From positions 76,635 to 140,634 of the forward strand of contig JABJOE010000009.1 in the NCBI GenBank assembly GCA_018664485.1: DNA of 64,000 nt. Reading direction: 5' to 3'. The notes under the pieces are model-generated. The model was not told the DNA's origin. It did no database searches and saw only the letters and a list, made by a program, of their open reading frames with translations. Positions 2,163 through 40,690 of this stretch are shown piece after piece. Position 1 is the stretch's first letter; each line of letters begins with the position of its first letter. The translations under genes and the position numbers were made by a program. The stretch is from Candidatus Uhrbacteria bacterium. Its GTDB lineage: Bacteria; Patescibacteriota; Patescibacteriia; UBA9934.

Positions 2163-4022
2163 CTACTGTGGATCACCCAAAATAGCCTTTATTCGGCGTA
2201 CTCCGGCTGACGAAGCCTGCTCCTTTTTTATCTTAAATTGGCCAAGTTCTGAAGTATTTTCAACATGAGGCCCTCCGCAGATCTCTTTTGAGTAATCTCC
2301 CACAAAATACACCTTAACCTTCCCTTCCATCTGTGCATACTTATCCTCAAATAATCCAATAGCTCCACGCTCTTTTGCTTCATCGACACCCAATAGCTCA
2401 AAATGGACCGGATAAGCAGCCTTAATTTGCTCATTTACAAGCCTTTCAACCTCGACCTTTTCCTCATCTGTCATCTTCTCATCATGTGAGAAATCAAAAC
2501 GAAGGCGTTCTTTGGTGATATTCGATCCACGCTGTGCAACATGATCACCTAAAACAGTACGCAGAGCCTGATGCAGCAAATGTGTAGCTGTATGCAAACG
2601 AGTAGATTCAGCAGAATCATCGGCTAAACCACCCTTAAACTTCTGTTGAGCACCTGCACGTGACAGGTCCTTATGCTTCTGAAACTCTTTCTTGAACATT
2701 TCACGATCTACATCTTGCCCCTCTTCCTGCGCAAGTTCTTCGGTTAGCTCAAGCGGAAATCCGTATGTCTGGTACAAATCGAATGCATCTTTTCCAGAAA
2801 TACTTCCACTCTTATCCCAAACCTTCTTAAACTCTCGGAGACCTTTCTCAAGAGTTTTAGCAAATTTTATTTCCTCTTTTTCTATTTCATCCAGGATTTT
2901 TTCGGATAACTCTGGATATGCTTCCTTATATGTTTCAATATAAGTCTTTGCAACGGCACTTAGAAGTGAATCTCTTACCCCAAGCTGACGAGCAAACCGA
3001 ACCGAACGCCTAAGCAATCGTCGAACAAAATAGCCCTGATCCTTATTAGCAGGGAAAACATTATCTCCTATAAGAAAAGTTGCAGCGCGGACATGGTCAA
3101 GAATTACTCGAAAAGCATAAGTATCCTTAATATCATCTCCATAGACCCTACCACTCACCTGCTCGATAACTTTCTTTGCACCATCGAATAGATCTGTCAT
3201 GAACACATCTGGCGCATCAAGCTTTGCTGCCAAAATACGCTCTAATCCACCTCCAAAATCTACATTTTTGTTTGGCAAGGATTCAAAACCGTCATCCGTC
3301 TTCTGATACTCCATGAAAACATTGTTCCCTATCTCAATGAAGCGGCCGCATTCACAAGTAACCTGACAGTGCTCACCCTTCCATTGCGAAGACTCGTGCA
3401 AACCGTGATGCTCACCAAAGTCCCAGAACATCTCTGAATCTGGACCACCCGGCTCACCACTAGGCATATTTTCTGGCATACCAGTGCGAGACCACCAATT
3501 TTCTTTTTCATCATAGTAAAAAATTCGACCTCCCTGCATACCGTTACTCTCCGCATCATCAACAATCTTTGCATCAACACCAACTTCAGTAAATTTATTT
3601 TGCCAATGCCCTGCCGAAACTTCGTCTCGATCAATCTTACTATTACCACTAAATACCGTAACGTATAAACGCGATGCATCAAGTCCAACCTCCTTTATGA
3701 GAAAATCAAACATCCACGGAATCTGTTCATCTTTAAAATAATCTCCCAAAGACCAGTTTCCCAACATTTCAAAAAACGTTGTGTGACGATTGTCCCCCAC
3801 TTCTTCAATATCTTGTGACCGAAAACACTTCTGAGAATCCGTAATTCGATTACCTGACGCATGTTCTTCACCTAGTAAATATGGAACCATGGGCTGCATA
3901 CCAGACCCAGTAAAGAGCGTCGTTGGATCATTCTCTGGAACCAAAGAAGCGGAAGGAATCTCCGAATGCCCCTTCTCTTTGAAGAAGTCTAAATACTTTC
4001 GCCGTAATTCATTTGCTTTCAT
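2163..4022 (-). CDS. alaS: alanine--tRNA ligase, short form (catalytic plus editing domains, no C-Ala domain)
   Basis: Class II AlaRS motifs at the N-terminus. Editing-domain HxxxH (HTATHLLH) and CGGPH motifs near the C-terminus. 619 aa against about 875 aa for full-length AlaRS. Confidence 0.9.
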   Translation of the reverse strand: MKANELRRKYLDFFKEKGHSEIPSASLVPENDPTTLFTGSGMQPMVPYLLGEEHASGNRITDSQKCFRSQDIEEVGDNRHTTFFEMLGNWSLGDYFKDEQIPWMFDFLIKEVGLDASRLYVTVFSGNSKIDRDEVSAGHWQNKFTEVGVDAKIVDDAESNGMQGGRIFYYDEKENWWSRTGMPENMPSGEPGGPDSEMFWDFGEHHGLHESSQWKGEHCQVTCECGRFIEIGNNVFMEYQKTDDGFESLPNKNVDFGGGLERILAAKLDAPDVFMTDLFDGAKKVIEQVSGRVYGDDIKDTYAFRVILDHVRAATFLIGDNVFPANKDQGYFVRRLLRRSVRFARQLGVRDSLLSAVAKTYIETYKEAYPELSEKILDEIEKEEIKFAKTLEKGLREFKKVWDKSGSISGKDAFDLYQTYGFPLELTEELAQEEGQDVDREMFKKEFQKHKDLSRAGAQQKFKGGLADDSAESTRLHTATHLLHQALRTVLGDHVAQRGSNITKERLRFDFSHDEKMTDEEKVEVERLVNEQIKAAYPVHFELLGVDEAKERGAIGLFEDKYAQMEGKVKVYFVGDYSKEICGGPHVENTSELGQFKIKKEQASSAGVRRIKAILGDPQ

Positions 4023-4147
4023 AATAGAGCCATCGTAGCCGATTTACCCTGTATGATCAAATAAAAATACAGCCGACAATTAATGATCGGCCGCCAATTT
4101 ATCTTAATTTTTGAGTTCTCAGAGATCGTCCATGACGAGCTCATTCA

Positions 4148-4174
4148 AACCCCCGAGATCGCTCGGTGGGTTTA
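4148..4174 (-). terminator. GC-rich hairpin (AAACCCCCGAG-ATCG-CTCGGTGGGTTT) after the last cassette of the array, before alaS
   Basis: Perfect inverted repeat seen in the sequence. The same CCCGAG...CTCGGG hairpin type follows every cassette ORF. Confidence 0.4.
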
Positions 4175-4237
4175 CAGACCTATATTAGAAAGCGGGCCTG
4201 CTAATAACGCTTTTTAGAAAGACTCCTAAAACTCAGA

Positions 4238-4669
4238 CTATGCCCAAAGCTTATTCAAGTCATTGCCGCTGATGAACTCAGGCATGTGAACACCTCTTTT
4301 TGTCTGACGAGAAGCCCTTGCCTGTCTACGAATCAACTGGCAAAGCTCCATTGCCCTGGGCACTTCGTTAGCGTCCACGTGTGCCCCTGAACTCATACGG
4401 CATGTAACACCGCCATCACCGTTCTCCATGTACTTCAACACACCTGGATGACGAACCATCTTAACGCCCAGATCCAGAACCTGCTGATAGGTGATGTCTC
4501 CAAAACCCAGCGCATGTGCCGAAACGACTGTCTGCCTACGACTCGTAGGAAGAGCGCCGTGCCCCAGAAGGGCTGTAGGACGAATTACTGTGACCGATGA
4601 ACCGTCTGCGAACCAAAAGGTCCTCATTCCGAGCTCATCCCTCTGATAAAGCGGCTGATTTTCAGCCAT
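4238..4669 (-). CDS. hypothetical protein, GC-rich cassette A (143 aa)
   Basis: ORF 4238..4762 trimmed to MAENQPLYQ..., which follows the conserved leader repeat directly. The N-terminal extension in the ORF track is just translation of the repeat. No recognisable family. Confidence 0.5.
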   Translation of the reverse strand: MAENQPLYQRDELGMRTFWFADGSSVTVIRPTALLGHGALPTSRRQTVVSAHALGFGDITYQQVLDLGVKMVRHPGVLKYMENGDGGVTCRMSSGAHVDANEVPRAMELCQLIRRQARASRQTKRGVHMPEFISGNDLNKLWA

Positions 4670-4729
4670 ATCGTCTCTTCTGAACCGTAGTTTTGTCCGG
4701 CTCGCAGCGCATCCCTGGGGAGATCCCAG
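4670..4729 (-). repeat. conserved cassette leader, copy A (about 48 nt plus covarying 5-bp hairpin)
   Basis: Gene-strand consensus CAGGGATGCGCTGCGAGCCGGACAAAACTACGGTTCAGAAGTAAAGAGGA then ATG. Four copies at 4670, 5162, 5601 and 6171. Confidence 0.85.
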
Positions 4730-4786
4730 AGTGTACGCATCTAAGCCCCCGAGTGATCGCACTCGGGAGACGCAGTATCTGTGGAC

Positions 4787-5161
4787 CTAAAGGCAAACCG
4801 GATAATGAATCACTCCTGATTGATCAGAAGCTACAGACTGCTCAGCGAGCATTCTCTCAACCTGCCTAACCTTGTCCATATCGCGAAGCACTTGTGTTAT
4901 TCCTTTGTCATCAACCCATTCAAACGCCACTCTGTAGCGACCCTTGAAGTGCTGCCGGAATATCTTCACCCCTCGGACTTCACGAGTTCCAGGAAGGAAC
5001 CAAGTCATAAGGAGTGACAAGAGCCACGGCCACTTCACGAAAAAGTTCGTGAGTCTCGTCTGCTCTCCAACAAGCCTTCTTCCACTGGAGAACCAGATTT
5101 CCAGCTCACCCTGTCCGTTCACTGCCGTGTGAACGGGAACCATTTCCTTGATAGATTTCAT
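4787..5161 (-). CDS. hypothetical protein, GC-rich cassette B (124 aa)
   Basis: The ATG sits immediately after the leader repeat, which ends in an AGAGGA Shine-Dalgarno sequence. No recognisable family. Confidence 0.5.
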   Translation of the reverse strand: MKSIKEMVPVHTAVNGQGELEIWFSSGRRLVGEQTRLTNFFVKWPWLLSLLMTWFLPGTREVRGVKIFRQHFKGRYRVAFEWVDDKGITQVLRDMDKVRQVERMLAEQSVASDQSGVIHYPVCL

Positions 5162-5225
5162 TCCTCTTTACTTCTGAACCGTAGTTTTGTCCGGCTCGCA
5201 GCGCCTCTTTGAAACCAATCAAAGA
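5162..5225 (-). repeat. conserved cassette leader, copy B
   Basis: Near-identical to copy A. The preceding hairpin TTTGA-ttggt-TCAAA covaries with CTGGG-atctc-CCCAG of copy A. Confidence 0.85.
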
Positions 5226-5276
5226 AGAGCGATAGAGCCCCAAAGCGTCACGCGCTTTGGGAAGGTCTGGACCTTT

Positions 5277-5600
5277 TTAGATCCGATCAATTCTTGCCAT
5301 GACACAAATACACCTAATAGTATCACCTAGTTCAAAGATGAAGCGCAGCGTTACCTGTCTAGCAGCTTGAATACAGGTGTAGACCAAAATGTTCATGGCA
5401 CCATCCTCACTGTAATGGCTTCCTGCACGGTACCAAAGTGGACTATCTCTAAGGATTTCGTCCAACTCTGCGAACCAGTCACTATTTCGAGACACCATCA
5501 CTCGATAATGAGACTCGTGAAGAAAGTCTCTCGGAATGAAATTCGGATTAGGCTCGAAGGTTCCATAAGGAACTGGAACTATGACTATAGAGCTACTCAT
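5277..5600 (-). CDS. hypothetical protein, GC-rich cassette C (107 aa)
   Basis: The ATG sits immediately after the leader repeat. No recognisable family. Confidence 0.45.
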   Translation of the reverse strand: MSSSIVIVPVPYGTFEPNPNFIPRDFLHESHYRVMVSRNSDWFAELDEILRDSPLWYRAGSHYSEDGAMNILVYTCIQAARQVTLRFIFELGDTIRCICVMARIDRI

Positions 5601-18624: not shown

Positions 18625-18653
18625 TTGACAAAAGTGCTTTTTTATGTCATTAT
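18625..18653 (+). promoter_or_regulatory. promoter module ACTTGACAAAAGTGCTTTTTTATGTCATTAT (shared with cassette arrays)
   Basis: Consensus -35 TTGACA, 17-nt spacer, CATTAT. Spacer sequence is identical to the array promoter at 6367..6395. Confidence 0.55.
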
Positions 18654-18753
18654 GGGCACGACGAAAGTCACTTCACCCAAAAACAACGGCTCAAAGCCAA
18701 AACGCGGCAACCCCGCAATCGAGAGACTATTGAAACTGAAGACACTGGTCGCA

Positions 18754-19122
18754 ATGGCCACCATCATGTTCGCAACCTTCGCCACCAAGACCGCCGAGGC
18801 ATGCGGAGGTGAAAACTTGCATATGTACTTCGGCTACGACTGGTTCGTCTACAGGTTGCCGAAGGATCACCCAAAGGGTGCTACGGTTGTAAGAGCGATC
18901 CCCAAATCGAAACTCACCGTTGTCATTGACGACGAGGGCGATAGCACGGTCGTCACTCTCCATGAGGGTGATAAAACCCTGATGACCGGAAAGATCTTCG
19001 CATGCTTCCGCTGTATGAGTTCCCCGACCTACATCAAATGGGAAGACCCTGAGACAAGAAAAGAACGAAAAGTGAACGACAAGGGTACCGCAGCGGCCCG
19101 ACTCGCATGCGTGAGCGAATAG
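18754..19122 (+). CDS. hypothetical protein in a GC-rich island (start uncertain)
   Basis: The upstream part of the ORF overlaps the promoter -10, so the start was moved to MATIMFATFATKTAEA (signal-peptide-like). The 5' UTR carries a GAC-GAAA-GTC tetraloop hairpin like the cassette leaders. Confidence 0.4.
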   Translation: MATIMFATFATKTAEACGGENLHMYFGYDWFVYRLPKDHPKGATVVRAIPKSKLTVVIDDEGDSTVVTLHEGDKTLMTGKIFACFRCMSSPTYIKWEDPETRKERKVNDKGTAAARLACVSE

Positions 19123-19200
19123 CGCTCTCACCCCGCATGACATCACCCCCTCCTGGTTCTCCGGGAGAGGGTGATTTGCTTTTGCGGTACCCTTCACCAA

Positions 19201-25427: not shown

Positions 25428-27302
25428 CTATCTACTCGGAGCGATCTCCAGGTAATCAAGCATAAAATCTGCTATCTCACCGAAAATTGGTGCCGCAGTG
25501 TCGGCGGCCCACGGAGTTGCTCGAGGATGCTCTATCTTCACCACCATAACGAACTGTGGATTTTCAATCGGACCAAAACCTACAAAAGTAGCATTTGTGA
25601 GATCTTCTGAATAACCACCGCTATCGGCAACCTGAGCTGTACCAGTTTTTCCAGCAATGTAATACCCATCAACTCCAGCCAATCCGGCATGCCCATTCTC
25701 AATCACTGACACTAGCATTGCCCCTATCGTCGTTGCCGTTGTCTTGTCGAGTACCTGTCGCACACTGCGTGGGGACATATGCTCAACGGTCCCGTCAGTA
25801 TAACGTTTTTCATCAACCACATAGGGCTGCATCAGCCAACCGCCATTTGCAATCGCACCATAAGCAGCAGCGATCTGCATTGGCGTCGACGTTATACCCT
25901 GACCATAACTACCAGTAGCATAATAAATCTCGTGATCTTTATACAAAGATTCAATAGTTCCACTTACCTCGGTATCCAAATCGATCCCCGACAATGTTCC
26001 AAATCCAAAATCTTCGTAATATCGAGTCATTACAAGACCTGTCATCTGGCGCATCACGAAAATCATTCCCGTGTTTAATGATTCTTCCAGAACCTGCGTC
26101 ATGGTCTGCAGCCCATGTGACTTCAAGTCCGAGTTTCGAATAGTGTACTCTTCAATTTCCTCCTCCCCGGTATCAACATAGGTAGTACTTGGAGTAACCG
26201 CTCCCACATCAATCGCCCCAGCCATTACCAACGCCTTCATCACAGACCCCGGCTCATACGCTGTGAAAATGGCATCGTTGTTGTACACAGCGACATCTTC
26301 TACTTCATTATACGCATTAGGATCGAAGTCTGGTGCGCCACACATGGCGATTACACGTCCCGTTGCAGGCTCTAGGATGACCACAGACCCGCCATCGGCA
26401 TCATATCGCTCAACTCCCTCTTGAAGCTTCCTGCACGCAGCGTGCTGGATTGTGCGATCGATTGTAAGCAGTAAGTCTCCCCCATCTTTTGCAGCTTCAA
26501 ACTCACGGCGTCCAACACCAATCCATCGCCCTACAGAATCAGTCTGAGCGTCTAGGAATCCGTTATCTCCATCGAGAAAATCGTTATAATAACCTTCAAG
26601 GCCATACTGTCCATATATCCCTTCGTTGGTATTTGAAACAAAGCCAAAGAGATGACCTCCCATGTTTACCTCTGGGTAAGATCTGACATCTTCGAGAATA
26701 TAGTAAATACCATCCAGCTCCAGTTCTAGAATTTTGTCTAAAGTTGATTCTGGTACATGACGTTCTATCGGTTCATATGGATCGTTCTCTTTTGAAAGTC
26801 GTTCAAGTAAAATTTCGTATTCTGAAAATTCAGGAGCCACTTCAGCTTCCTCGACAGGTACAGTCTCCTCGCCGTCAATTTCATCTAGCAATAAATCCAG
26901 TACATCATCGGGTTCTGTAATTTCAATTTCGTATCCTAAAATTTTCGCTATTGCGAGCGCTGTATATTCGGGGTCTTCAATCTTTCGAGGTTCTGCGTAG
27001 ATGAATGCTCGAGCTTCATTTGTAGCTGCAGCGTACTCACTGTCGTCTTTCCAATCTTTTACATATATAGTCCCCCGTTCTGCAATGAGCTCTTTATATA
27101 CATCATGCTGTCCGGAAGCAAGTGACGCATAAAACCCAGCATTTACAACCTGCAATGTAAAAAGTCTAAAAACAAGTAATCCAGCAAAAACAAAAAAGAA
27201 CGCTCGAAGGGCATTGAAGCGCCAATCTTTGCGTGTCTTTGTTGATTTTCTCTTACGAGGAGGCATGAGCGCATTATAGCAGGAGGCGCCTATCACCTCC
27301 AC
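25428..27302 (-). CDS. ftsI: penicillin-binding protein 2 / FtsI-type transpeptidase
   Basis: N-terminal TM anchor. SxxK (SVMK), SxN and KTGT (AGKTGTAQV) motifs. Confidence 0.85.
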   Translation of the reverse strand: MEVIGASCYNALMPPRKRKSTKTRKDWRFNALRAFFFVFAGLLVFRLFTLQVVNAGFYASLASGQHDVYKELIAERGTIYVKDWKDDSEYAAATNEARAFIYAEPRKIEDPEYTALAIAKILGYEIEITEPDDVLDLLLDEIDGEETVPVEEAEVAPEFSEYEILLERLSKENDPYEPIERHVPESTLDKILELELDGIYYILEDVRSYPEVNMGGHLFGFVSNTNEGIYGQYGLEGYYNDFLDGDNGFLDAQTDSVGRWIGVGRREFEAAKDGGDLLLTIDRTIQHAACRKLQEGVERYDADGGSVVILEPATGRVIAMCGAPDFDPNAYNEVEDVAVYNNDAIFTAYEPGSVMKALVMAGAIDVGAVTPSTTYVDTGEEEIEEYTIRNSDLKSHGLQTMTQVLEESLNTGMIFVMRQMTGLVMTRYYEDFGFGTLSGIDLDTEVSGTIESLYKDHEIYYATGSYGQGITSTPMQIAAAYGAIANGGWLMQPYVVDEKRYTDGTVEHMSPRSVRQVLDKTTATTIGAMLVSVIENGHAGLAGVDGYYIAGKTGTAQVADSGGYSEDLTNATFVGFGPIENPQFVMVVKIEHPRATPWAADTAAPIFGEIADFMLDYLEIAPSR

Positions 27303-27733
27303 TACGTAGCACTCACATCATCCTCTGCAACGATCTGACCGATTGAAACCACTCGGTCTCCTGTAACGTCAGATATAACAACTCGGAGGAGCTCTCCCTC
27401 ACTTTCAAAGTCTTTAAACGTAACAGGCTCAATAACTACACCATCCTCGTCGATCACGTTACCCTTCCCTTCGTAAGAAAACTCAAAGTCTTTGTTGCGG
27501 AATACGACGATAGCCTCACTTGGGTCTACATCTTCATCAGCTTCTTCAAAAAGCATAATCTCATCAGATCCGATGTCGATAGATAGCCAACGTCCGCTCT
27601 CATTGCGAATCCAATAAACACTCTCACCTGTATCTAAAACGGCCTGATCGATTGTGTCTGGGTCGAAAGACAAGCTCTTAACAAGAACCGGCTGCTCCTC
27701 CTGTAGACGGCTTAATAGGTCTTGGATATTCAT
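27302..27733 (-). CDS. hypothetical acidic protein upstream of ftsI
   Basis: ORF 27302..28192 trimmed to MNIQDLLSRLQ. The upstream part overlaps the GC-rich plus-strand gene and was discarded. Confidence 0.45.
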   Translation of the reverse strand: MNIQDLLSRLQEEQPVLVKSLSFDPDTIDQAVLDTGESVYWIRNESGRWLSIDIGSDEIMLFEEADEDVDPSEAIVVFRNKDFEFSYEGKGNVIDEDGVVIEPVTFKDFESEGELLRVVISDVTGDRVVSIGQIVAEDDVSAT

Positions 27734-27929
27734 ACGAAAAGAGTATAACGCTCTGTGGGTTTTTTTGTAAATACCTAGCGCGGAATTGTCCACATTATTG
27801 ACTATTTGGCTCAAAATTGCTAACTTAATTCCTTCTTCGCTTTTCTGGCGTGGAGAGGGCTTACGGACCCTGGCAATGCCAAAGACGTAAAAACAACCTG
27901 AAACCTTGCGCCAGTGGCGCGGAGGTAAT

Positions 27930-28733
27930 ATGAGACGACCAGACGATACACCCCTTCCCAACCAGTCAACATTCGAAAAGGCCGTAATGGGACACGGTGA
28001 TTGCACGTACTTCGGTACCATGTTCACAAAGTCGCAGGCACAAGCCGGCAAGTCGGTAGATCGGGCGTACGAAGCAGCCGCTACGGCAGCGGGCATGCTG
28101 ACGACTGATGGAAGGGACGAAGTAGATATTCCCGGCGACTTTTTCGTAGGTCGCTGCTCTGCGGCAAATGAGAATGGACACTCGTGGTTCACGGCTCACT
28201 GGTTCGAATATAGGCTTCCTTTGTACGGAATGATGCTGACCAATCCCGAGTATCAAGCGACAGCGCTCCTGCTTGCAGGATATCTCCAGCTTGGCGAAGG
28301 GATAACCGGAAAGAAATTCGCTCACTACAGGGTACTCGAAGGACTGAAGTTTCTTCCAATCGTCCTGTCCCCCTCGGGCATTCGGTTCTACATGTATCGT
28401 CCGACCACAGAGAGTATGCGCAAAGCGGCGATACAGTTCGCAGAAGTCCTCACGCGCATGCGCGCTCACGGATTTCTGAGCAAAGAAGGTTTGATGAATG
28501 CATTCCTGAGCGTGCACACAATTCTGGGAATCAAGCGGGTACAGGACCTTGCTCGTAATGAAGTTACTGCAGAGTCAATTGCTGCCGCCATTGCAGCCCT
28601 CCATACAGAGTTCGTGGAATCCCTAGGCGGAATGACTGGCGGTTCCCTGGGCATGGTTCTCAGGGATGTCGGACACGGCCCGCACGATACAAAGCTCTTC
28701 GACGCTGGTAAAGGCAAAATTCGTCGGAGCTAG
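27930..28733 (+). CDS. hypothetical protein in a GC-rich island (267 aa)
   Basis: Start at the ATG 5 nt after a GGAGG SD. GC is clearly elevated over the flanks. A strong terminator follows. No recognisable family. Confidence 0.5.
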   Translation: MRRPDDTPLPNQSTFEKAVMGHGDCTYFGTMFTKSQAQAGKSVDRAYEAAATAAGMLTTDGRDEVDIPGDFFVGRCSAANENGHSWFTAHWFEYRLPLYGMMLTNPEYQATALLLAGYLQLGEGITGKKFAHYRVLEGLKFLPIVLSPSGIRFYMYRPTTESMRKAAIQFAEVLTRMRAHGFLSKEGLMNAFLSVHTILGIKRVQDLARNEVTAESIAAAIAALHTEFVESLGGMTGGSLGMVLRDVGHGPHDTKLFDAGKGKIRRS

Positions 28734-28744
28734 CTGCCACTCGT

Positions 28745-28784
28745 CCGCCATCGACCCTCGTGTCGGTGGCGGGCTGTTGCTTTT
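28745..28784 (+). terminator. intrinsic terminator of the GC-rich gene
   Basis: CCGCCATCGAC-cctcgt-GTCGGTGGCGG followed by GCTGTTGCTTTT. Confidence 0.65.
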
Positions 28785-28815
28785 AACCAACTATTCACCA
28801 CACGCTTTAAAATAT

Positions 28816-29403
28816 TTAAAAATCCAATCCCTCGCGAGCTTTTACTCCTGAATAGAAATAGTGACGTTCAAGTTTTGATTCTGTAATTAAATGGGCGGCT
28901 TCTAAAAATTCAGGACATGGATCACGGCCGGTCAAAATAACTTCTACATCTTCGTTCTTTTGCGCAAGAGCATCTAAAACCAGCTTTGAATCGAGCATCC
29001 CAAGATCAGTTGTAGAGTTTATTTCATCGAGGATAACAAGACTGTATTCACCGCTCGTTAAAAACCCTCGTGTTAACTCAAGTCCGCGACTCGCTTCTTT
29101 CTTATCGATGTCTGTAATTGAAAAATCAAAGCGTCCATTCACAGGATCTATTCGATCACGACCTGTTACGAAATAATCAATGTTTTCTATTTTATCTAGC
29201 GCAAGGCGCTCGAAGTAATGATCATTCCCACCTTTATCAAAATAAACAATAGTCACTTTGCGACCTGATCCAGCACAACGAATTGCCTGCCCAAGCGCCG
29301 CCGTTGTCTTTCCTTTACCATGCCCGTGAATGAGCTGAATAAGTCCATACCCTTGCCTTCCAAGGATTCGTTTATCCGCTATTGGTTGTTGTTTTTCCGT
29401 CAT
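28816..29403 (-). CDS. cobO: cob(I)yrinic acid a,c-diamide (corrinoid) adenosyltransferase, CobO/BtuR type
   Basis: P-loop GHGKGKTTAA. Conserved ILDEI and the C-terminal HYFYSGVKAREGLDF block. Confidence 0.8.
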   Translation of the reverse strand: MTEKQQPIADKRILGRQGYGLIQLIHGHGKGKTTAALGQAIRCAGSGRKVTIVYFDKGGNDHYFERLALDKIENIDYFVTGRDRIDPVNGRFDFSITDIDKKEASRGLELTRGFLTSGEYSLVILDEINSTTDLGMLDSKLVLDALAQKNEDVEVILTGRDPCPEFLEAAHLITESKLERHYFYSGVKAREGLDF

Positions 29404-29537
29404 AAAATTGACAAAGCCTTGTTTTGTATTAAAATTTGATCAAATTCCTGCGTCACATACCAGGTCGGTTTACGAAAGTGAACTAAGTAGGAAAATTTCA
29501 CCTCACCAAATGAAATCTATTGAAGCTGGAGGATACC

Positions 29538-29753
29538 ATGGCTCTGGATGACGTTTTGGCAAGAGAGATGGGTCGTGAACCTGCAGCCGGCCACCAAGGA
29601 CAGACACGCGCACCCACTGACCAATCAATCGGTAATGCGATGAGATTCGCTGCCGCATGTAGACGACTCTCAGCGAGAGCGAGGCACGGCCACCACAAGC
29701 GACTCCCACGACGCCAAACAGAACAAGAAACGCCCCATTGGCACATCGACTAG
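29538..29753 (+). CDS. hypothetical small basic protein, GC-rich tandem cassette 1 (71 aa, ends PHWHID)
   Basis: ATG 5 nt after a GGAGGA SD. The last 6 codons lie inside the 123-bp direct repeat. Confidence 0.45.
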   Translation: MALDDVLAREMGREPAAGHQGQTRAPTDQSIGNAMRFAAACRRLSARARHGHHKRLPRRQTEQETPHWHID

Positions 29754-29860
29754 CCCGCGTCACCATCTTGGCGTGAGGAGCACCCGTACGATCTGATCGT
29801 GCGGGTGCCTTGCTTTTTACATGTAAAAAAACCGCTCTACCCTCACAACAAAACTTTCTA
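29738..29860 (+). repeat. 123-bp direct repeat copy 1 (ORF 3' end + terminator + T/A palindrome)
   Basis: Near-identical to 30421..30543. Contains the hairpin GCACCCGTACGATC-tga-TCGTGCGGGTGC, then CTTGCTTTTTACATGTAAAAAAA. Confidence 0.9.
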
Positions 29861-29904
29861 CGCATACACAACCAAATTACGTATTTTTTTGCTACTCATA
29901 TACT

Positions 29905-29933
29905 TGACAAAAGACCTATTTTATGACAATATT
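29905..29933 (+). promoter_or_regulatory. promoter module ACTTGACAAAAGACCTATTTTATGACAATAT for cassette 2
   Basis: TTGACA, 17 nt, CAATAT. Homologous to the modules at 18625 and 6395. Confidence 0.5.
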
Positions 29934-30040
29934 TTATCCTAATTCCTGTGCTATATGCCAGGTCGGTTCACGAAAGTGAGCTCAGGAGGACCAGGTTTCC
30001 ATCCTTATCCAATGGGGACATCAGAGACAAGGAGGGCTAC

Positions 30041-30436
30041 ATGCCCGCAACCGGAGACAAGGACTACGTCCGCTATCTCGTCAGAACCAGTGGAGGAGTC
30101 AAACGATTCCGTGACTCACAGGATTCGCCTGATGGCGGCCGCGTTGAAGTCCCGTTCGAACTCAGCATCATGTCCTGGAATGGCAAGAGATGGGTCCACC
30201 CGCAGCCTACCAATAACTGGATCGTGATCATCGACGGCACGCATCGTGGCAATATCGCTGGAAGTGTTCTTCTTCGAGGTAAAATGCGTCGACGGCACCA
30301 TGACGCAGGTATCCGTAAAGAATACGACTTCAAGGGCATCCGGTTCTTCGGCCATAGCCCTCTTGTAGGAAGTGCTCTCGGATTCCTCAACGTCTGGGAT
30401 CACGGCACAAGCCCGCCCGCTTGGCACATCGACTAG
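30041..30436 (+). CDS. hypothetical protein, GC-rich tandem cassette 2 (131 aa, ends PPAWHID)
   Basis: ORF 29948..30436 trimmed to MPATGDKDY, 6 nt after an AAGGAGG SD. The C-terminal 6 codons are shared with cassette 1 through the direct repeat. Confidence 0.45.
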   Translation: MPATGDKDYVRYLVRTSGGVKRFRDSQDSPDGGRVEVPFELSIMSWNGKRWVHPQPTNNWIVIIDGTHRGNIAGSVLLRGKMRRRHHDAGIRKEYDFKGIRFFGHSPLVGSALGFLNVWDHGTSPPAWHID

Positions 30437-30543
30437 CCCGCGTCACCATCTTGGCGTGAGGAGCACCCGTACGATCTGATCGTGCGGGTGCCTTGCTTTT
30501 TACATGTAAAAAAACCGCTCTACCCACGCAACAAAACTTTCTA
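30421..30543 (+). repeat. 123-bp direct repeat copy 2
   Basis: See copy 1. Confidence 0.9.
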
Positions 30544-30668
30544 TATATACGCAACCGGGTTGCGTATTTTTTACTACCAACAACCCCAGGTCTTCTCGAC
30601 CCGGGGCTTTCGTATTCCTTCTCTTAAAACCTTCAGAATTGCGTTAGATCTGGCTGTGAAGCTTCGGT

Positions 30669-30792
30669 GTAAAAATGGCTAAGTCGCCATGTCGCTAGGC
30701 GTAAGCCGAGCACTAGTTGAGCCGTACTCAAATGTACGGTGAGACTAGCGCAGGGTTACAACAACGCGAGATGGCGACTTGGGCCGTTTTTA
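30669..30792. terminator. bidirectional structured terminator: about 100-nt long-range stem flanked by T-runs on both strands
   Basis: AAGTCGCCATGTCGC pairs with GCGAGATGGCGACTT (14 of 15). GGGCCGTTTTTA on the plus strand and AGCCATTTTTAC on the minus strand. Lies directly after the nrdJ stop. Confidence 0.45.
30713..30747. repeat. REP-like palindrome copy 1 (outer stem - TGAG-CCGTAC-loop-GTACGG-TGAG - outer stem)
   Basis: CTAGT-TGAGCCGTACtcaaatGTACGGTGAG-ACTAG. The second copy at 54124 has the same core with a different outer stem. Confidence 0.5.
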
Positions 30793-33700
30793 GCTACAAC
30801 CGGAGGTTGATCCGCAGTTCAGGCATTTATAGCACGCCCCATTCCTCACCATCATAGACCCGCAAGTATCACACGCTGGTGCATCTGCAGAGTTATCAAA
30901 TGTCATAGTATGAGCACCTGCAGCGCCTACATCCGGCGTAACCTGCTCAACTACTTCTGCAACAGCGGTCTGCACTGTCTTTTCAAACAAATTTGTCTGG
31001 TCAACAGCATTCACTTCTACCTTCGCTACCTCTTCTTTTTCTAGATTATTCAATCCAACCTGCTCTTGCGCATCTGACGGCAAGAACTTCAATGCCATCC
31101 ATCGGAAGATATAGTCAATCAAAGACTTCGCCATTCGAATGTTCGGGTTGTTCGTAAATCCAGATGGCTCAAAGCGCATATGAACAAACTTATTCACCAG
31201 AACTTGCAATGGCACACCATACTGCAACGCCATTGAAATACTTGTAGCAAATGCATCCATTAAACCGGAAATCACCGAACCTTCTTTTGCCATTGTAATG
31301 AACAGCTCACCTGGAGTTCCGTCATCGTATTTACCAACTGTAATATACCCCTTATGGCTCGCAACATTAAAACGATGCGTGATTGAATTTCGTTCATCTG
31401 GCAAACGTCGTCGTCGAGGTGCCACAACCTGTGAAACTGGTACTGAAACTTCCTGCTCTGTAACCGCCGGAGCCGCTACAGCCGCCGGAGCAACCTCTTC
31501 TTTCGCTTCATGACCCTTCTTTGAGTCACTCTCCTTTGACGTTGTAAGAGCCTGCTGACGCTTAGAACCATCTCGGTACACGGCGATAGCTTTCAGACCC
31601 ATGCGCCATCCCTCCATGTAAACCTCTTGAATATCTTCGATCGTTGCCTCATGTGGCATGTTTACAGTCTTTGAAATTGCACCTGAGATAAACGGTTGAA
31701 CTGCTGACATCATTCGAAGATGTCCCATATAATCAATCGTTCGCTTTCCATTCTTCGCTTTAAACGCGCAATCAAATACAGCAGTATGCTCGTCGGTAAT
31801 ATGCGGAGCACCCTCGATGGTATCCATCTTGTCGATGTAGTCCATTATTTCCTTTACCTGCACTTCGCTGTAACCCATTCGTGCCAAAGCTTCCGGTACC
31901 GTCTTGTTTACAATTTTCATCATTCCGCCACCGACAAGCCACTTGTACTTCACAAGAGCAATATCAGGCTCAACTCCAGTTGTATCGCAGTCCATCAAGA
32001 AAGAGATGGTTCCGGTTGGCGCAAGTACAGAGATCTGCGCGTTTCGCATACCGTGTTCTCGTCCATGCGTTACGACATTATCCCAAGACTTTCGAGCTTC
32101 GAACAACAAGTCAGCAGGTACGCCTTCTGGAGAAATTTGATATGACGCATTGCGGTGCATCTGCATCACCTCAAGCATTGGTTCCTCATTTTGAGCATAA
32201 CCGGCAAACGCTCCAATCTTTTCTGCGATCTTTGAAGACTGATAGAATGTCTGACCTGAAAGTAATGACATGATCGCTCCTGCCAAGTTACGACCTTCGT
32301 CTGAGTCGTATGCCAAACCACGGCTCATAAGTAGAGCTCCTAGGTTTGCAAAACCTATTCCAAGTGGTCGGTAGTCATGGCTGTTCTGCTCGATTGCTGG
32401 TGTTGGATAGCTAGAGTTTCCAACTGCGATTTCCATTGCAGTAATCATCACTGATGCTGTGTGCTTAAAAGACTCAACATCAAATTCCATTACGCCATTG
32501 ATTTCCTTTCGGAACTTCAATAGGTTCAGTGAAGATAGGTTACACGCAGAATCATCCAAGAACATGTACTCAGAACATGGGTTTGATGCGTAAATTCGAT
32601 CCGTGTTCTTACACGTGTGCCAGTCATTGATAGCTGTATCGTACTGGATTCCAGGGTCCCCACATTCCCACGTAGCCTTTGCCATTTTATGCATCAAATC
32701 TCGTGCACGGTATGTAGTAGCTGGATTTCCAGTAGTAACTTCGCGTGTTGACCATTCTCCATCTGTGTCCACGGCACGCATGAATTCATCTGTAACACGT
32801 ACTGAGTTGTTTGCGTTCTGGAAGAAGATTGATCCGTACGCCTCTCCGTCCATTGAAGAATCATATCCAGCATCAATAAGTGCCCATGCCTTCTTTTCTT
32901 CTTTAGCTTTGCAATCAATAAATTCCTCTACGTCAGGGTGCGCAATGTCCAAGATAACCATTTTAGCTGCCCGCCGCGTCTTTCCACCGGACTTTACGAT
33001 TCCGGCAAACGCATCAAATCCCTTCATGAAAGACACAGGACCAGATGACTTTCCGTTTGATCGACTCAAAAATTCAAAACTAGATCGTAATTTTGAAAGG
33101 TTAGAACCAGTCCCAGACCCTCCCTTGAACAACATACTTTCAGTTGTACAAAGGTGCAGGATTGAACGCATGTCATCTTGAACTGAGTTGATGAAACATG
33201 CAGAACACTGTGGGTGTGGGTTCACTCCAACGTTAAACCATACAGGACTGTTGAAAGCCGCCATCTGGTTTATAAGAATATGCGTAAGCTCTTCTTGGAA
33301 AACCTGCGCGTCTTGAGCACTCTGGAAATATCCGTCATTTCGGCCCCATCCAGACATAGTGTCTGCCACACGAGAGATCAATTGCTTCATTGAAGCCTCA
33401 CGATCAGGCTCCCCAATCTTTCCTCGGAAGTACTTCTGCGCCACAACATTTGTTGCAGTCTGTGACCACTCTGTTGGCGTTTCGATATTATTCTGTTCAA
33501 AAACGACATTTCCCTTAGCATCCGAAATCTTTGCAGTACGCATCTCCCAATTGATCGCATCGTATGGGTGCACACCTTCTTTTGTATAGTAACGATCAAA
33601 TCGAACTCCGTTTCCGTAAACCGGCATGTTGCCCTTTGCTGGAGACATCTTCTGCTTGAACACCATGTACTTGCGCGCAATATGTACCAGGTTGTTATCA

Positions 33701-34005
33701 ATAAAAGTCATTGACACCACTTCTCGGATGTCGCCGGTAGACGGAGTAGTGTGTCCGTTGTAGATCTTCTGCAATCGAGACAAGACCTGTCCGGTAACAC
33801 GATCGATCACCTGCTCGTTTTTCATCCCGCCGGCCTCAAGGGCACCGCGTATCGATCCATTCAATTTCTGAGAATTAAAATCAACCTCCTGTCCGCCGCG
33901 CTTTTGCACAGCTTTAAGTGAGGTCATATATTGCCAAACGGAATCACTGACGGTTCCCGCTTTGACATTGGGATCAACAGCTTTTGTAGCCTGAGACTGA
34001 TTCAT
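30790..34005 (-). CDS. nrdJ: adenosylcobalamin-dependent ribonucleotide reductase (class II), ATP-cone plus C-terminal zinc ribbon
   Basis: N-terminal ATP-cone. Class II active-site region (NPCSEYMFLDDSACNLSSLNL). C-terminal CDTC...CYKCLNCG. 1071 aa with no intein-like insertion. Confidence 0.9.
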   Translation of the reverse strand: MNQSQATKAVDPNVKAGTVSDSVWQYMTSLKAVQKRGGQEVDFNSQKLNGSIRGALEAGGMKNEQVIDRVTGQVLSRLQKIYNGHTTPSTGDIREVVSMTFIDNNLVHIARKYMVFKQKMSPAKGNMPVYGNGVRFDRYYTKEGVHPYDAINWEMRTAKISDAKGNVVFEQNNIETPTEWSQTATNVVAQKYFRGKIGEPDREASMKQLISRVADTMSGWGRNDGYFQSAQDAQVFQEELTHILINQMAAFNSPVWFNVGVNPHPQCSACFINSVQDDMRSILHLCTTESMLFKGGSGTGSNLSKLRSSFEFLSRSNGKSSGPVSFMKGFDAFAGIVKSGGKTRRAAKMVILDIAHPDVEEFIDCKAKEEKKAWALIDAGYDSSMDGEAYGSIFFQNANNSVRVTDEFMRAVDTDGEWSTREVTTGNPATTYRARDLMHKMAKATWECGDPGIQYDTAINDWHTCKNTDRIYASNPCSEYMFLDDSACNLSSLNLLKFRKEINGVMEFDVESFKHTASVMITAMEIAVGNSSYPTPAIEQNSHDYRPLGIGFANLGALLMSRGLAYDSDEGRNLAGAIMSLLSGQTFYQSSKIAEKIGAFAGYAQNEEPMLEVMQMHRNASYQISPEGVPADLLFEARKSWDNVVTHGREHGMRNAQISVLAPTGTISFLMDCDTTGVEPDIALVKYKWLVGGGMMKIVNKTVPEALARMGYSEVQVKEIMDYIDKMDTIEGAPHITDEHTAVFDCAFKAKNGKRTIDYMGHLRMMSAVQPFISGAISKTVNMPHEATIEDIQEVYMEGWRMGLKAIAVYRDGSKRQQALTTSKESDSKKGHEAKEEVAPAAVAAPAVTEQEVSVPVSQVVAPRRRRLPDERNSITHRFNVASHKGYITVGKYDDGTPGELFITMAKEGSVISGLMDAFATSISMALQYGVPLQVLVNKFVHMRFEPSGFTNNPNIRMAKSLIDYIFRWMALKFLPSDAQEQVGLNNLEKEEVAKVEVNAVDQTNLFEKTVQTAVAEVVEQVTPDVGAAGAHTMTFDNSADAPACDTCGSMMVRNGACYKCLNCGSTSGCS

Positions 34006-34204: not shown

Positions 34205-34359
34205 TCGGAGAATTTTCTGGGTGTGGATAAAATTTACCGGCAAAAGTACTTGGCTAGCATTGGCGGAGCTACATTGACACGACTCGTAATCTTGTATAAT
34301 ATCCCGTACGACCACTGCAGTAAATTTCTTCTCTGTATTTACAACCTATTGGAGACCGC

Positions 34360-34851
34360 ATGTGCCCCCTTTTGGTCACAGCTACTTCGCAACCCGACTT
34401 TTCAAACCCCTTCTCCATTGTTGGATTTCTGGTACAAAATGCAGCCGACCGTGAAGATGTACAACAAAATGAAATCGACCGGTGGGTAGCTGCAATCGCA
34501 AATATCGACTCTATTACCCGGCACGAAGATCCCGATTTGCGATACAGGCTCGCACAGTGTATTGCCAGATGCGGCTTCGGCCACAGTACCGGGCGCGACG
34601 TCTCGGGCAGTATGCTGCTCAACGAACTGAGCAGCACGGAATGCTACATGGATGGAAGCGAACCGAAAACCGCCCAAGAGATACGTGTAATGCTCTATTG
34701 CGGAAACCTGAATTCTCTTGCAGAAGCACAAGAAGGCGACATTCGTGCTGCGATCTTCGCAGCCTGCGCACTGAAGTATGCGGTTAGAGAATTCGCCTCA
34801 GAGCACCCCGTGCTCGCAATCCAAGTCTACTTGTTTGGTCACGGTAACTGA
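34360..34851 (+). CDS. hypothetical protein in a GC-rich island (163 aa), divergent from nrdJ
   Basis: ATG after a GGAGA SD. Extended -10 TGTATAAT upstream. GC clearly elevated. A strong terminator follows. Confidence 0.45.
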   Translation: MCPLLVTATSQPDFSNPFSIVGFLVQNAADREDVQQNEIDRWVAAIANIDSITRHEDPDLRYRLAQCIARCGFGHSTGRDVSGSMLLNELSSTECYMDGSEPKTAQEIRVMLYCGNLNSLAEAQEGDIRAAIFAACALKYAVREFASEHPVLAIQVYLFGHGN

Positions 34852-34865
34852 TCAACGCCCCTCAC

Positions 34866-34902
34866 CCCCGTTTCCTCCTTGGAGACGGGGGATGTCTGTT
34901 TA
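34866..34902 (+). terminator. intrinsic terminator
   Basis: CCCCCGTTTCC-tcctt-GGAGACGGGGG followed by ATGTCTGTTT. Confidence 0.6.
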
Positions 34903-38649: not shown

Positions 38650-40230
38650 TCATGATAGCTCCTCCTTCTTCTCTTTTACAAATTCAAACCATTCTTCCGT
38701 GAAGCGTACAGCAACTTTGTATGGAGCCTCAATAATGAAGTCGAAGAAATAGATAAAGACATTCACCTTTGCAACCTTCACAGATAACCATCGTCCTGCA
38801 CGCACTATTGGAAGCATTAGAAGGTCAAACATTGAACCGATGATACCGCGGCGGGACTTTGAAAGTATAATATCCCTTGTAAGCCCACGAATGCGAATTC
38901 CAAAGAATGTTACAAGCGACAGGAAGAACAAGAACAATGCAATAGAAAAAGCATTGAAACCAAGCTTATGCAAGAAAAATGCGATAGCACCGTATATAAC
39001 AAAGAACAATAGAGAATATACTACCGCAAAAATCTGCTTCCACGCACCGAATCTATTGACTTGCACCTTAACATTCAACATATCGTGGCTCGCACCTACT
39101 ACAAGAGCGCGTGCTGCTGACTTATAGTCCTCAGCATTACGACGTTCCGGCAAAGTTACAGTAAGTCCTATGATGGCCAAGAAGATCGGGTGGAATAAAA
39201 TATTTACAATAAGTGGAACTATAAATAGCTCACCATGTACAAGTAAGTCGTATGGAATCTCGAGTATCAGAGCTAAGAACATCTTTGTTATGAACAAAAA
39301 TGCTACTGCCCGCACAACCGTTCTCCGTAAACGTTTTCGGAATGTACTAGTCTGTACTTTTAACCTCTTCCACATTGCACGACCTAACAAATCCGGTTCC
39401 TGTGTAACATACCCCTCAAACTCATGTGGAAAATTTTCAATGACATCCAGCAACACGCGGAACAATCCAGCCTTACGACGAACGCGATGAGTAAGCTTCT
39501 CAGTCAACCAATGCTCAATCTGCAAATCAACGGTCGCTATTACAGTTTCTAGATTTTGTGCAATCTCCAAAATTCGAGCCCGCGATGATGCGCCAACCCA
39601 ATCCGGATAATACAGTGTCATCAACCTGTAACGAAGTGTTGCATGGTTAGATTTGAGTAATGTCTTGTGGCATGCAACGAAAAGTCTAATGTCCCTATCC
39701 TCTTCACTTACATCAAGTTTAGTATCCCACGCGGTTCTCTTCTTTAACTCCTCATACATGTAACTTGCCATGTACTCCTCTCTATCATGCGAAATCAATG
39801 TATATTCAACTTCTGTCGACAATACATCTAACACCCATGTCATTGCATATTCTGGGTTTGATGTCTTCTGAGCTGCGTCAAAGATTGGTCCGTACTTTAA
39901 AAAGACTGGTTTTAAATCGTTAATAAATGATGTTGGGACCTGCTTATTTGGAAGATATTTTGCCCAAACAAGTTCCTGCAATAAAAGTGATGCCATGTCT
40001 TCCAGAACCGTATCGGAACCCAAATACCTACGCAATATTCGCGTAATGGCATTCCGTCTAAGAAGATGCTCTTCCTGATATTCAAGCGTTGTACGAACAC
40101 GTTCATACAGTGCTGCGGCAGTAGATGCCGGAACACTAACCTCAATAGTCTCCTCCCCATCACCTTCAGGTGGAACCATTGGTTTTGAGCCGATAATAGC
40201 TTGGCCGATTTGTGAGAGTCGATTGGACAT
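38650..40230 (-). CDS. hypothetical membrane protein (about 270-aa cytosolic N-domain plus about 6 TM helices)
   Basis: Hydrophobic C-terminal half; no recognisable catalytic motif. Confidence 0.5.
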   Translation of the reverse strand: MSNRLSQIGQAIIGSKPMVPPEGDGEETIEVSVPASTAAALYERVRTTLEYQEEHLLRRNAITRILRRYLGSDTVLEDMASLLLQELVWAKYLPNKQVPTSFINDLKPVFLKYGPIFDAAQKTSNPEYAMTWVLDVLSTEVEYTLISHDREEYMASYMYEELKKRTAWDTKLDVSEEDRDIRLFVACHKTLLKSNHATLRYRLMTLYYPDWVGASSRARILEIAQNLETVIATVDLQIEHWLTEKLTHRVRRKAGLFRVLLDVIENFPHEFEGYVTQEPDLLGRAMWKRLKVQTSTFRKRLRRTVVRAVAFLFITKMFLALILEIPYDLLVHGELFIVPLIVNILFHPIFLAIIGLTVTLPERRNAEDYKSAARALVVGASHDMLNVKVQVNRFGAWKQIFAVVYSLLFFVIYGAIAFFLHKLGFNAFSIALFLFFLSLVTFFGIRIRGLTRDIILSKSRRGIIGSMFDLLMLPIVRAGRWLSVKVAKVNVFIYFFDFIIEAPYKVAVRFTEEWFEFVKEKKEELS

Positions 40231-40238
40231 GTGTTGTT

Positions 40239-40690
40239 TTAGGGATTAGGGATTAGGTGTTAGGTATCAAAACTCATCAGAGACCAGCTTTCAATGAACG
40301 GATTGAGCTATTTAACATCTTCATAACCTCAGTAAGTGACCCCAATAACGGGTTGACACCGTCATCGTCAACAAACTTTAAACGTTTTGCGATCTCTATC
40401 TGTGTTTCCAATTCTGACCCTGAAGCATACGCAATATAAACAAAACGCAGAAATTCTTTTCTGGAGCCCCTGCCACGTCCCTCTGCAATATTAGAGGGAA
40501 TAGAAACGGCGCATCTCCTCATCTGTGATATAAGTCCATATTGTTCTTCTTTGGGGAAACTCGCAGTCATACGATAGACCGATACCACTAAGTCCATTGC
40601 CTTTTGCCACATGACTAAATCTTTATAACTCTTCACCTCCATACCTATAAGATAGTGTCTATCACCTAATACCTGATACCTATAACCTGA
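40239..40690. mobile_element. IVS-like element: long imperfect inverted repeat of TAGGT heptads enclosing a four-helix-bundle protein gene
   Basis: Left arm TTAGGGATTAGGGATTAGGTGTTAGGTATCA (40239-40270). Right arm TGATACCTATAACCTGA region (40661-40690). The arms are reverse-complementary with wobble pairs and abut the ORF stop and start. Confidence 0.45.
40277..40642 (-). CDS. four-helix-bundle protein (23S rRNA intervening-sequence protein family; Avd-like)
   Basis: 121 aa; …VYRMTASFPKEEQYGLISQMRRCAVSIPSNIAEG… is the hallmark block of the PF05635/TIGR02436 family. Confidence 0.8.
   Translation of the reverse strand: MEVKSYKDLVMWQKAMDLVVSVYRMTASFPKEEQYGLISQMRRCAVSIPSNIAEGRGRGSRKEFLRFVYIAYASGSELETQIEIAKRLKFVDDDGVNPLLGSLTEVMKMLNSSIRSLKAGL

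Follow-up and report, generated by a model that had tools for sequence, protein, structure and literature searches.

Two tandem moron-like units with shared flanks and different orphan reading frames between cobO and nrdJ in a Candidatus Uhrbacteria genome

We analyzed a 64,000-nucleotide (nt) stretch of DNA from a Candidatus Uhrbacteria bacterium (GenBank assembly GCA_018664485.1, contig JABJOE010000009.1, positions 76,635 to 140,634), referred to here as the window, and examined the interval between its cobO and nrdJ genes. This interval contains two plus-strand units arranged head to tail (29408-29889 and 29904-30572). In each, a sigma-70-like promoter and a leader similar in both units are followed by a GGAGG ribosome-binding site, an open reading frame (ORF) of its own and a shared 3' module. 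Read as a whole, they are autonomous, moron-like transcription units with lineage-specific orphan ORFs, lying on the strand opposite to the gene string nrdJ-cobO-DUF4178-PBP2. The explanation we favor, with a probability of about 0.55, is an old tandem duplication of one unit, followed by remodelling of one of the two coding bodies and by recent gene conversion or unequal crossing-over in the core of the 3' module. The features of the interval and its neighbouring genes are as follows, with coordinates given as window positions.

28816-29403, minus strand: cobO, ATP:corrinoid adenosyltransferase, the left neighbour (PF02572, E = 3.8e-45)
29408-29435, plus strand: promoter-like site of unit 1, TTGACA-16-TAAAAT (11 of 12 matches, the best in the region)
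29443-29537, plus strand: 5' leader of unit 1, with its conserved first 50 nt at 29443-29492 and GGAGG at 29528-29532
29538-29753, plus strand: ORF1, 71 amino acids (aa), rich in Arg, Ala and His and of low complexity
29731-29889, plus strand: R1, the first copy of the 3' repeat, with a small hairpin at 29756-29775 and a decayed distal second hairpin
29904-29933, plus strand: promoter-like site of unit 2, TTGACA-18-AATATT (10 of 12 matches)
29941-30040, plus strand: 5' leader of unit 2, with its conserved 50 nt at 29941-29990, a GAAA hairpin at 29965-29981 and GGAGG at 30031-30035
30041-30436, plus strand: ORF2, 131 aa, an orphan protein
30414-30572, plus strand: R2, the second copy of the 3' repeat, with an intact second terminator hairpin (30547-30567) and T-run, facing the 3' end of nrdJ
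30790-34005, minus strand: nrdJ, class II B12-dependent ribonucleotide reductase (Pfam), the right neighbour, convergent with unit 2

An earlier note on this DNA, made from the sequence alone, had described a GC-rich tandem pair with promoter-like regions, leaders and ORFs of 71 and 131 aa. All of these elements were found in place, with the start of ORF1 corrected to 29538. The two promoter-like sites were the top two in the 3.4-kb region scanned; that of unit 1 diverges from cobO, whose start codon lies at 29401-29403, and in both units 7 nt separate the promoter from the conserved leader. Each leader is approximately 95-100 nt long, and the conserved segments (29443-29492 and 29941-29990) are 82% identical. 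Their 22-mer core, CCAGGTCGGTTYACGAAAGTGA, occurs twice in the 64 kb compared with 0 occurrences expected by chance. The unit 1 leader is predicted to fold into a stem (UCCUGC/GUAGGA) around the hairpin GGUUUAC-GAAA-GUGAACU (29467-29483), which carries a GNRA loop. As read from the sequence, both substitutions between the two copies of the GAAA hairpin stem keep its pairing (U-G to C-G and U-A to U-G). The leader had been taken as the shared 5' part, and it is indeed shared; the promoter, ribosome-binding site and start codon, however, are homologous as well. Alignment of 29400-29492 with 29896-29990, from the cobO start codon through promoter and leader, gave 76% identity, and the homology extends, by eye, across the ribosome-binding site and the ATG.

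Comparison of the 3' ends revealed that R1 and R2 are 92% identical over 159 nt at a spacing of 683, and a wider alignment (29718-29889 with 30402-30572) gave 90%. The earlier note had reported a repeat of 123 bp. This segment (29731-29853) is identical between the copies at 119 of 123 positions, but the true extent of the repeat is 159 nt, reaching to a second terminator hairpin. The repeat contains an exact block of 105 nt (29738-29842 and 30421-30525), whereas the distal 47 nt of R1 and R2 are only 79% identical. It starts within both coding regions, as had been noted, and the two proteins end in PHWHID and PAWHID. The module then runs from the last codons (WHID-stop) through a 7-bp hairpin, a 13-bp terminator and a palindrome to the second terminator hairpin, which is intact in R2 only. 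The GC-rich terminator hairpin (GCACCCGTACGATC-TGA-GATCGTGCGGGTGC, followed by CTTGCTTTTT; 29780-29808 and 30463-30491) was confirmed, with 13 pairs including one G-U instead of the 14 bp first proposed, and the palindrome TTTTTACATGTAAAAAAA (T5-ACATGT-A7) was present in both copies as described (29814-29831 and 30497-30514). Folding of the 3' module was stronger than that of shuffled sequences (z = -3.6 to -4.2). Assemblies made independently from several samples and with several pipelines all gave the same cobO-nrdJ arrangement, which is not an assembly artefact.

The position of the units was compared with related genomes using CobO-based loci from GTDB, which came from Uhrbacteria metagenome-assembled genomes with CobO proteins 64-75% identical to that of the window. 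Eight relatives have nrdJ, cobO, a DUF4178-like gene and PBP2 tightly consecutive on a single strand. The nrdJ-cobO gap measures approximately 48-308 nt in six of the seven relatives that span the junction, compared with 1387 nt here, and the cobO-DUF4178 gap measures 43-174 nt, compared with 1083 nt here. Because the gene string is tight in relatives, both units, and a further orphan termed ORF3 in the cobO-DUF4178 gap, are insertions. The proposal that the pair had been inserted into a formerly contiguous cobO-nrdJ unit, for which a comparison of relatives had been suggested, is therefore confirmed. The window's units showed no similarity to the intergenic regions of the relatives. Other genes of the window (PBP2, MurJ, ribosomal proteins, alanyl-tRNA synthetase and others) are those of a chromosome whose synteny is kept in other Uhrbacteria.

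At one relative's locus (L012, CAZMTL010000001.1; CobO 68% identical) the nrdJ-cobO gap is 2.2 kb, and it holds a tandem pair unrelated to that of the window. The two units of this pair, each with a TTGACT promoter, lie on the opposite strand at positions 3790-5563 of the locus. Their promoter and leader regions are 82% identical, and their 3' ends are 85% identical over 176 nt and approximately 94% over the last 130 nt; the shared 3' end takes in the last ~20 codons together with a double hairpin that terminates in CTTGCTTTT. The units have a GC content of 0.56-0.58 compared with 0.47-0.49, and their ORFs encode pentapeptide-repeat proteins of 122 and 273 aa that are clear paralogues. No sequence similarity was detected between these units and those of the window. 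Since the pair is paralogous, tandem duplication with flanks better kept than bodies does occur at this site, and because a pair of the same layout is so clearly paralogous we favor duplication over cassette capture for the window as well. The comparison also suggests that the nrdJ-cobO site tolerates or attracts such units.

We propose that an ancestral complete unit, from the promoter to the second terminator, would have been duplicated head to tail long ago, that the flanks would then have diverged by approximately 20-25%, and that one body would later have been remodelled by deletion, frameshift or replacement. The copies lie head to tail, and their promoters, leaders and 3' modules are homologous in the same order, as in an ordinary tandem duplication, and the 105-nt exact block is embedded in flanks of 76-82% identity. 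Since a chance run of this length at ~20% divergence has P < 1e-10, we read the block as the signature of a conversion tract; it would be the product of recent gene conversion or unequal crossing-over between the copies and not the recombination site of a dedicated system. A possible crossover product, described below, and the real paralogues at the same site in the relative add to the likeness with tandem duplication and gene conversion, which differs in one respect: no homology can be detected between the bodies here, and what the units share is limited to their regulatory flanks and final 6-8 codons. The leader stem with its GNRA-loop hairpin may act as a stabilizer of the mRNA 5' end or as a regulatory handle, and the terminators, double in unit 2, may serve to stop antisense transcription into the convergent nrdJ.

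Several observations weigh against this explanation. ORF1 and ORF2 have no protein similarity beyond the last 6 residues (z = -0.1), in agreement with the earlier note's picture of shared flanks around differing bodies. At the DNA level one colinear, frame-shifted patch of 37 nt (29557-29593 compared with 30181-30212) is 76% identical, which is the level of the diverged flanks, and may point to a shared origin of the two bodies; its statistics, however, are marginal (pairwise E = 0.02, z = 2-4 depending on the scoring), and it could be a chance match. With no protein similarity and a single marginal patch, these data do not prove that the bodies share an ancestor. They would also be compatible with a cassette-like event in which unrelated DNA took the place of one body, and the GC-rich orphan bodies suggest a foreign or otherwise unusual origin that duplication alone does not explain. 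ORF1 could also be open by chance, with a probability of ~0.16 over its 59 T-poor codons (estimated with hand-set base frequencies of A 0.27, C 0.33, G 0.25 and T 0.15). Finally, gene conversion would be read here from two sequences only, and the 3' module would also be kept identical by strong purifying selection, yet terminator stems normally tolerate compensatory change.

The earlier note had instead proposed that the gene body is exchanged as a cassette. On this model, the leader and the 3' repeat would be portable adaptors between which bodies are swapped by homologous recombination, for example after natural transformation; we consider this unlikely. Shared flanks around unrelated bodies are what such exchange would give, and in several assemblies contigs break at the unit borders. 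An 824-bp MEGAHIT contig (L004; ENA ERZ27250210, k141_831240) has a 141-nt end overlap that yields a 683-bp circular path, and contains unit 2 together with a hybrid repeat that is R2-type on its 5' side and R1-type on its 3' side. A crossover inside the 105-nt core would yield just such a sequence, as either a circle or a tandem duplication. The contig nevertheless comes from a fragmented assembly of apparently low coverage and may be an assembly artefact, since the same cycle would remain if the collapsed core lost its two chromosomal edges at k = 99. As the sole sign of recombination between the repeats it was counted as a lead only, and a crossover between direct repeats requires no cassette system.

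Searches for other copies also argue against exchange of bodies. The leader core had 0 matches in 185,579 GTDB species-representative genomes and 0 in IMG/VR, and in the JGI metagenomes it was found solely on one contig identical to the window; it is thus confined to this locus across these collections. The earlier note had taken absence of the repeat elsewhere as a point against its own proposal, and within the collections searched the repeat was absent: the terminator and palindrome had 0 matches in IMG/VR (the 105-nt core itself was not scanned in the metagenome and genome collections), and the translated repeat core (minus strand) matched only itself in the protein search. Approximately 20 contigs from ~15 samples were 99.9-100% identical to the window and carried the same two bodies throughout. 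No alternative body was found between these flanks in any collection searched, the units number just two at a single locus, no recombinase domain was found among the genes of ~0-56 kb of the window, and no attC-type site or terminal inverted repeat was identified. A dedicated cassette-swapping system is therefore unsupported.

Units of the same general kind lie elsewhere in the window, and they bear on a second alternative.

27930-28733, plus strand: ORF3, 267 aa, GC-rich orphan between cobO and the DUF4178 gene (unit 27930-28774)
34360-34851, plus strand: orphan of 163 aa upstream of nrdJ, GC 0.52, with no Pfam or PADLOC match
18652-19122, plus strand: orphan of 156 aa (unit 18625-19190), with a 15-bp hairpin and TTGCTTTT after the gene

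ORF3 is followed by a 13-bp hairpin terminator (28743-28774, tail TGTTGCTTTT), and its flanks differ from those of units 1 and 2, although it is the same kind of unit. In two samples (L028 and L029) it stands alone on short contigs starting at 27844-27846, which may reflect presence/absence polymorphism or just low coverage. The orphan at 34360-34851 is preceded by a promoter-like site of its own, TTGACA-17-TAATAT (34274-34302), and followed by a separate hairpin terminator (34865-34891), and because it too fills a gap, an opposite-strand orphan unit is found in every gap around nrdJ and cobO. The promoter of the 18625 unit, TACTTGACAAAAG, nearly matches that of unit 2, and within the window the strong hairpin with a TTGCTTTT tail occurs solely after these GC-rich orphan units.

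On the second alternative the two units would be true morons, acquired horizontally on two occasions from one unsampled donor pool, such as Uhrbacteria phages or plasmids, with a common style of promoter, leader and terminator; the identity of the 3' ends would arise if the second insertion used the 3' end of the first unit as a target of homology or attachment. We regard this as improbable, to about the same degree as the exchange of bodies. It draws on base composition: GC is 0.57 in the body of ORF1 and 0.55 in that of ORF2 compared with 0.44 in host genes, and all orphan bodies, ORF3 included, have GC of 0.54-0.58 and third-codon-position GC (GC3) of 0.49-0.60 compared with 0.44 and 0.39 in the host. 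Each unit has its own promoter and terminator, the strong hairpin and TTGCTTTT tail are common to ORF3, the R1/R2 module, the 18652-19122 unit and the pair in the relative L012, the TACTTGACAAAAG promoter is common to unit 2 and the 18625 unit, and the nrdJ-cobO site is occupied in that relative too. No match to the units was found, however, in IMG/VR (where the motifs of ORF3 and of the relative's pair also had 0 matches) or by blastn against GenBank phages and PLSDB plasmids, and no protein homologue was found in the collections searched. No integrase was identified, nor any attachment-site duplication besides the repeat itself. The 5' region is homologous throughout, down to the ribosome-binding site and start codon, which better fits duplication of one unit.

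A third possibility, which we consider doubtful and less probable than either of the above, is that the units are non-coding RNAs or decaying junk, in which ORFs stay open as GC-rich, T-poor sequence has few stops. ORF1 was never called as a gene in a public collection, and gene callers picked minus-strand ORFs in some assemblies. ORF1, ORF2 and ORF3 had no match in Pfam, PHROGs or PADLOC; ORF2, by word search, and ORF3 each matched only themselves among 5.8 billion clustered proteins, and for ORF2 the same result was obtained by full phmmer over 1.84 billion representatives. AlphaFold models were of low confidence, with a single-sequence predicted local distance difference test (pLDDT) score of 34.5 for ORF2 and scores within 34-38 for ORF2 and ORF3. 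These findings are set against a GGAGG correctly spaced 5-6 nt upstream of each ATG, an annotated frame that was the best of six by codon statistics for all three ORFs, and terminator stems whose G-U pairs are compatible with the plus strand only. The equivalent units in the relative L012, moreover, encode bona fide pentapeptide-repeat proteins. The bodies folded no better than shuffled sequences (z = 0.1 and -0.6) and are therefore unlikely to be structured non-coding RNAs. Rfam searches of the whole window at the gathering threshold, and of 27000-31200 and 30560-30820 at E <= 10, returned nothing relevant. The leader was likewise considered as a known riboswitch and set aside with no relevant Rfam match, and an old B12 riboswitch between nrdJ and cobO was unsupported. 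We take the units as predicted to be transcribed and translated from their sequence signals, with ORF2 a better candidate for a real protein than ORF1; the latter is probably the degenerate or novel one of the two, and it may be what remodelling left behind and not a conserved protein. No functional link of the units' proteins to B12 chemistry was found, and any protein function would be conjecture.

A broader possibility, about as doubtful as that of non-coding units, is that the nrdJ-cobO junction of Uhrbacteria is a dedicated hotspot that captures and expresses new GC-rich ORFs in a recombinase-independent 'expression cassette' system of candidate phyla radiation (CPR) bacteria. A portable frame of promoter, leader and terminator would allow units to be amplified, excised as small circles (683 bp) and exchanged within the 3' module, and this genome and the relative L012 would be two snapshots of the process.

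An integron-like, site-specific cassette array, with the 123-nt repeat or the ACATGT palindrome as recombination site, is largely refuted and by far the least probable: the repeat does lie at the 3' end of each ORF and a 683-bp circular path exists, but a regular-expression search of both strands of 29390-30640 found no attC core site (RYYYAAC or GTTRRRY), no tyrosine or serine recombinase domain was present among the Pfam matches for genes of ~0-56 kb of the window, both units are equipped with promoters of their own, unit 1 is not preceded by a copy of the site, and the copies are only two. Chromosomal attC sites are similar in length to the 123-nt repeat, and integron cassettes are generally promoterless and expressed from Pc. 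The likeness to integron cassettes thus consists of unrelated ORFs that are each followed by a ~120-nt repeat with internal dyad symmetry, with a circular form conceivable; attI and an integrase are missing here along with the attC core sites.

Other known systems were also compared with the two units. Like the variable and template repeats (VR/TR) of diversity-generating retroelements (DGRs), the repeat is a ~100-150-nt direct repeat over a gene's 3' end followed by a GC-rich hairpin. Unlike them, it is almost wholly non-coding with an identical core, and 4 of its 10 distal mismatches are not at R1 adenines. A DGR was rejected, since the window annotation contains no reverse transcriptase domain. 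On the minus strand at 38650-40642, a 121-aa 23S rRNA-intervening-sequence family protein with a weak bAvd-like match (40277-40642) adjoins a 526-aa protein without a Pfam match; no repeat pair lies near the bAvd-like protein. A miniature inverted-repeat transposable element or other insertion sequence-derived element was rejected because neither the units nor the core is flanked by inverted repeats and the two copies are both local; no transposase domain was found in the annotated genes of the window. A type I toxin-antitoxin system (LDR-like) was rejected as well, ORF1 being hydrophilic and Arg-rich, ORF2 being 131 aa long and the bodies not being repeated.

In architecture the units come closest to phage morons, and in evolutionary process to ordinary tandem duplication with partial gene conversion. 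Morons are independent transcription units inserted between two genes (PMC3594210). The units described here have their own promoter and strong terminator between genes that are adjacent in relatives, a base composition unlike their surroundings, and functions that are accessory or not known. They differ from phage morons in that they lie on a bacterial (Uhrbacteria) chromosome with housekeeping genes and have no PHROG or phage DNA match, and in that the duplicated flanks of two units fall outside the moron definition. The two small species-specific orphans are, in these terms, new genes in a known kind of arrangement.

Further observations were made around the locus and in its relatives. An imperfect hairpin of ~125 nt (30670-30793) begins at the nrdJ stop codon and folds with z of about -6 on both strands; it had no Rfam match and no further copy in the window or the relatives. 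Another hairpin lies at 30585-30606. Two relatives carry a G+C-rich nrdJ-cobO intergenic segment of 250-310 nt (L011, 2804-3057; L015, 5693-6001), with no Rfam match at the gathering threshold and, for L015, nothing meaningful at E <= 10. In another (L013) the DUF4178 gene and PBP2 are separated by a non-coding insertion of 562 nt, and the cobO product of L012 (332 aa) carries a fused NUDIX domain at its N terminus. Record titles name L008, L009, L012 and L017 as 'uncultured Gammaproteobacteria bacterium' (CobO 68-75%) and L014 as Methylococcaceae, despite Uhrbacteria-type synteny; these labels are probably wrong or the result of binning contamination.

Taken together, the plain reading of these data is that accessory orphan genes in a very small, streamlined CPR genome are carried as self-contained, opposite-strand, moron-like units within conserved gene strings, and that regulatory flanks can be duplicated and homogenized while the coding body turns over, which makes the locus a case study of orphan-gene turnover. 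There is also a practical value for annotation, as gene callers disagree at the cobO-nrdJ units and sometimes choose the wrong strand. Should these flanks be found with different bodies in other strains, or the 683-bp circle prove real, the locus would point to a simple recombination-based cassette mechanism in a lineage whose mobile-element biology is poorly known.

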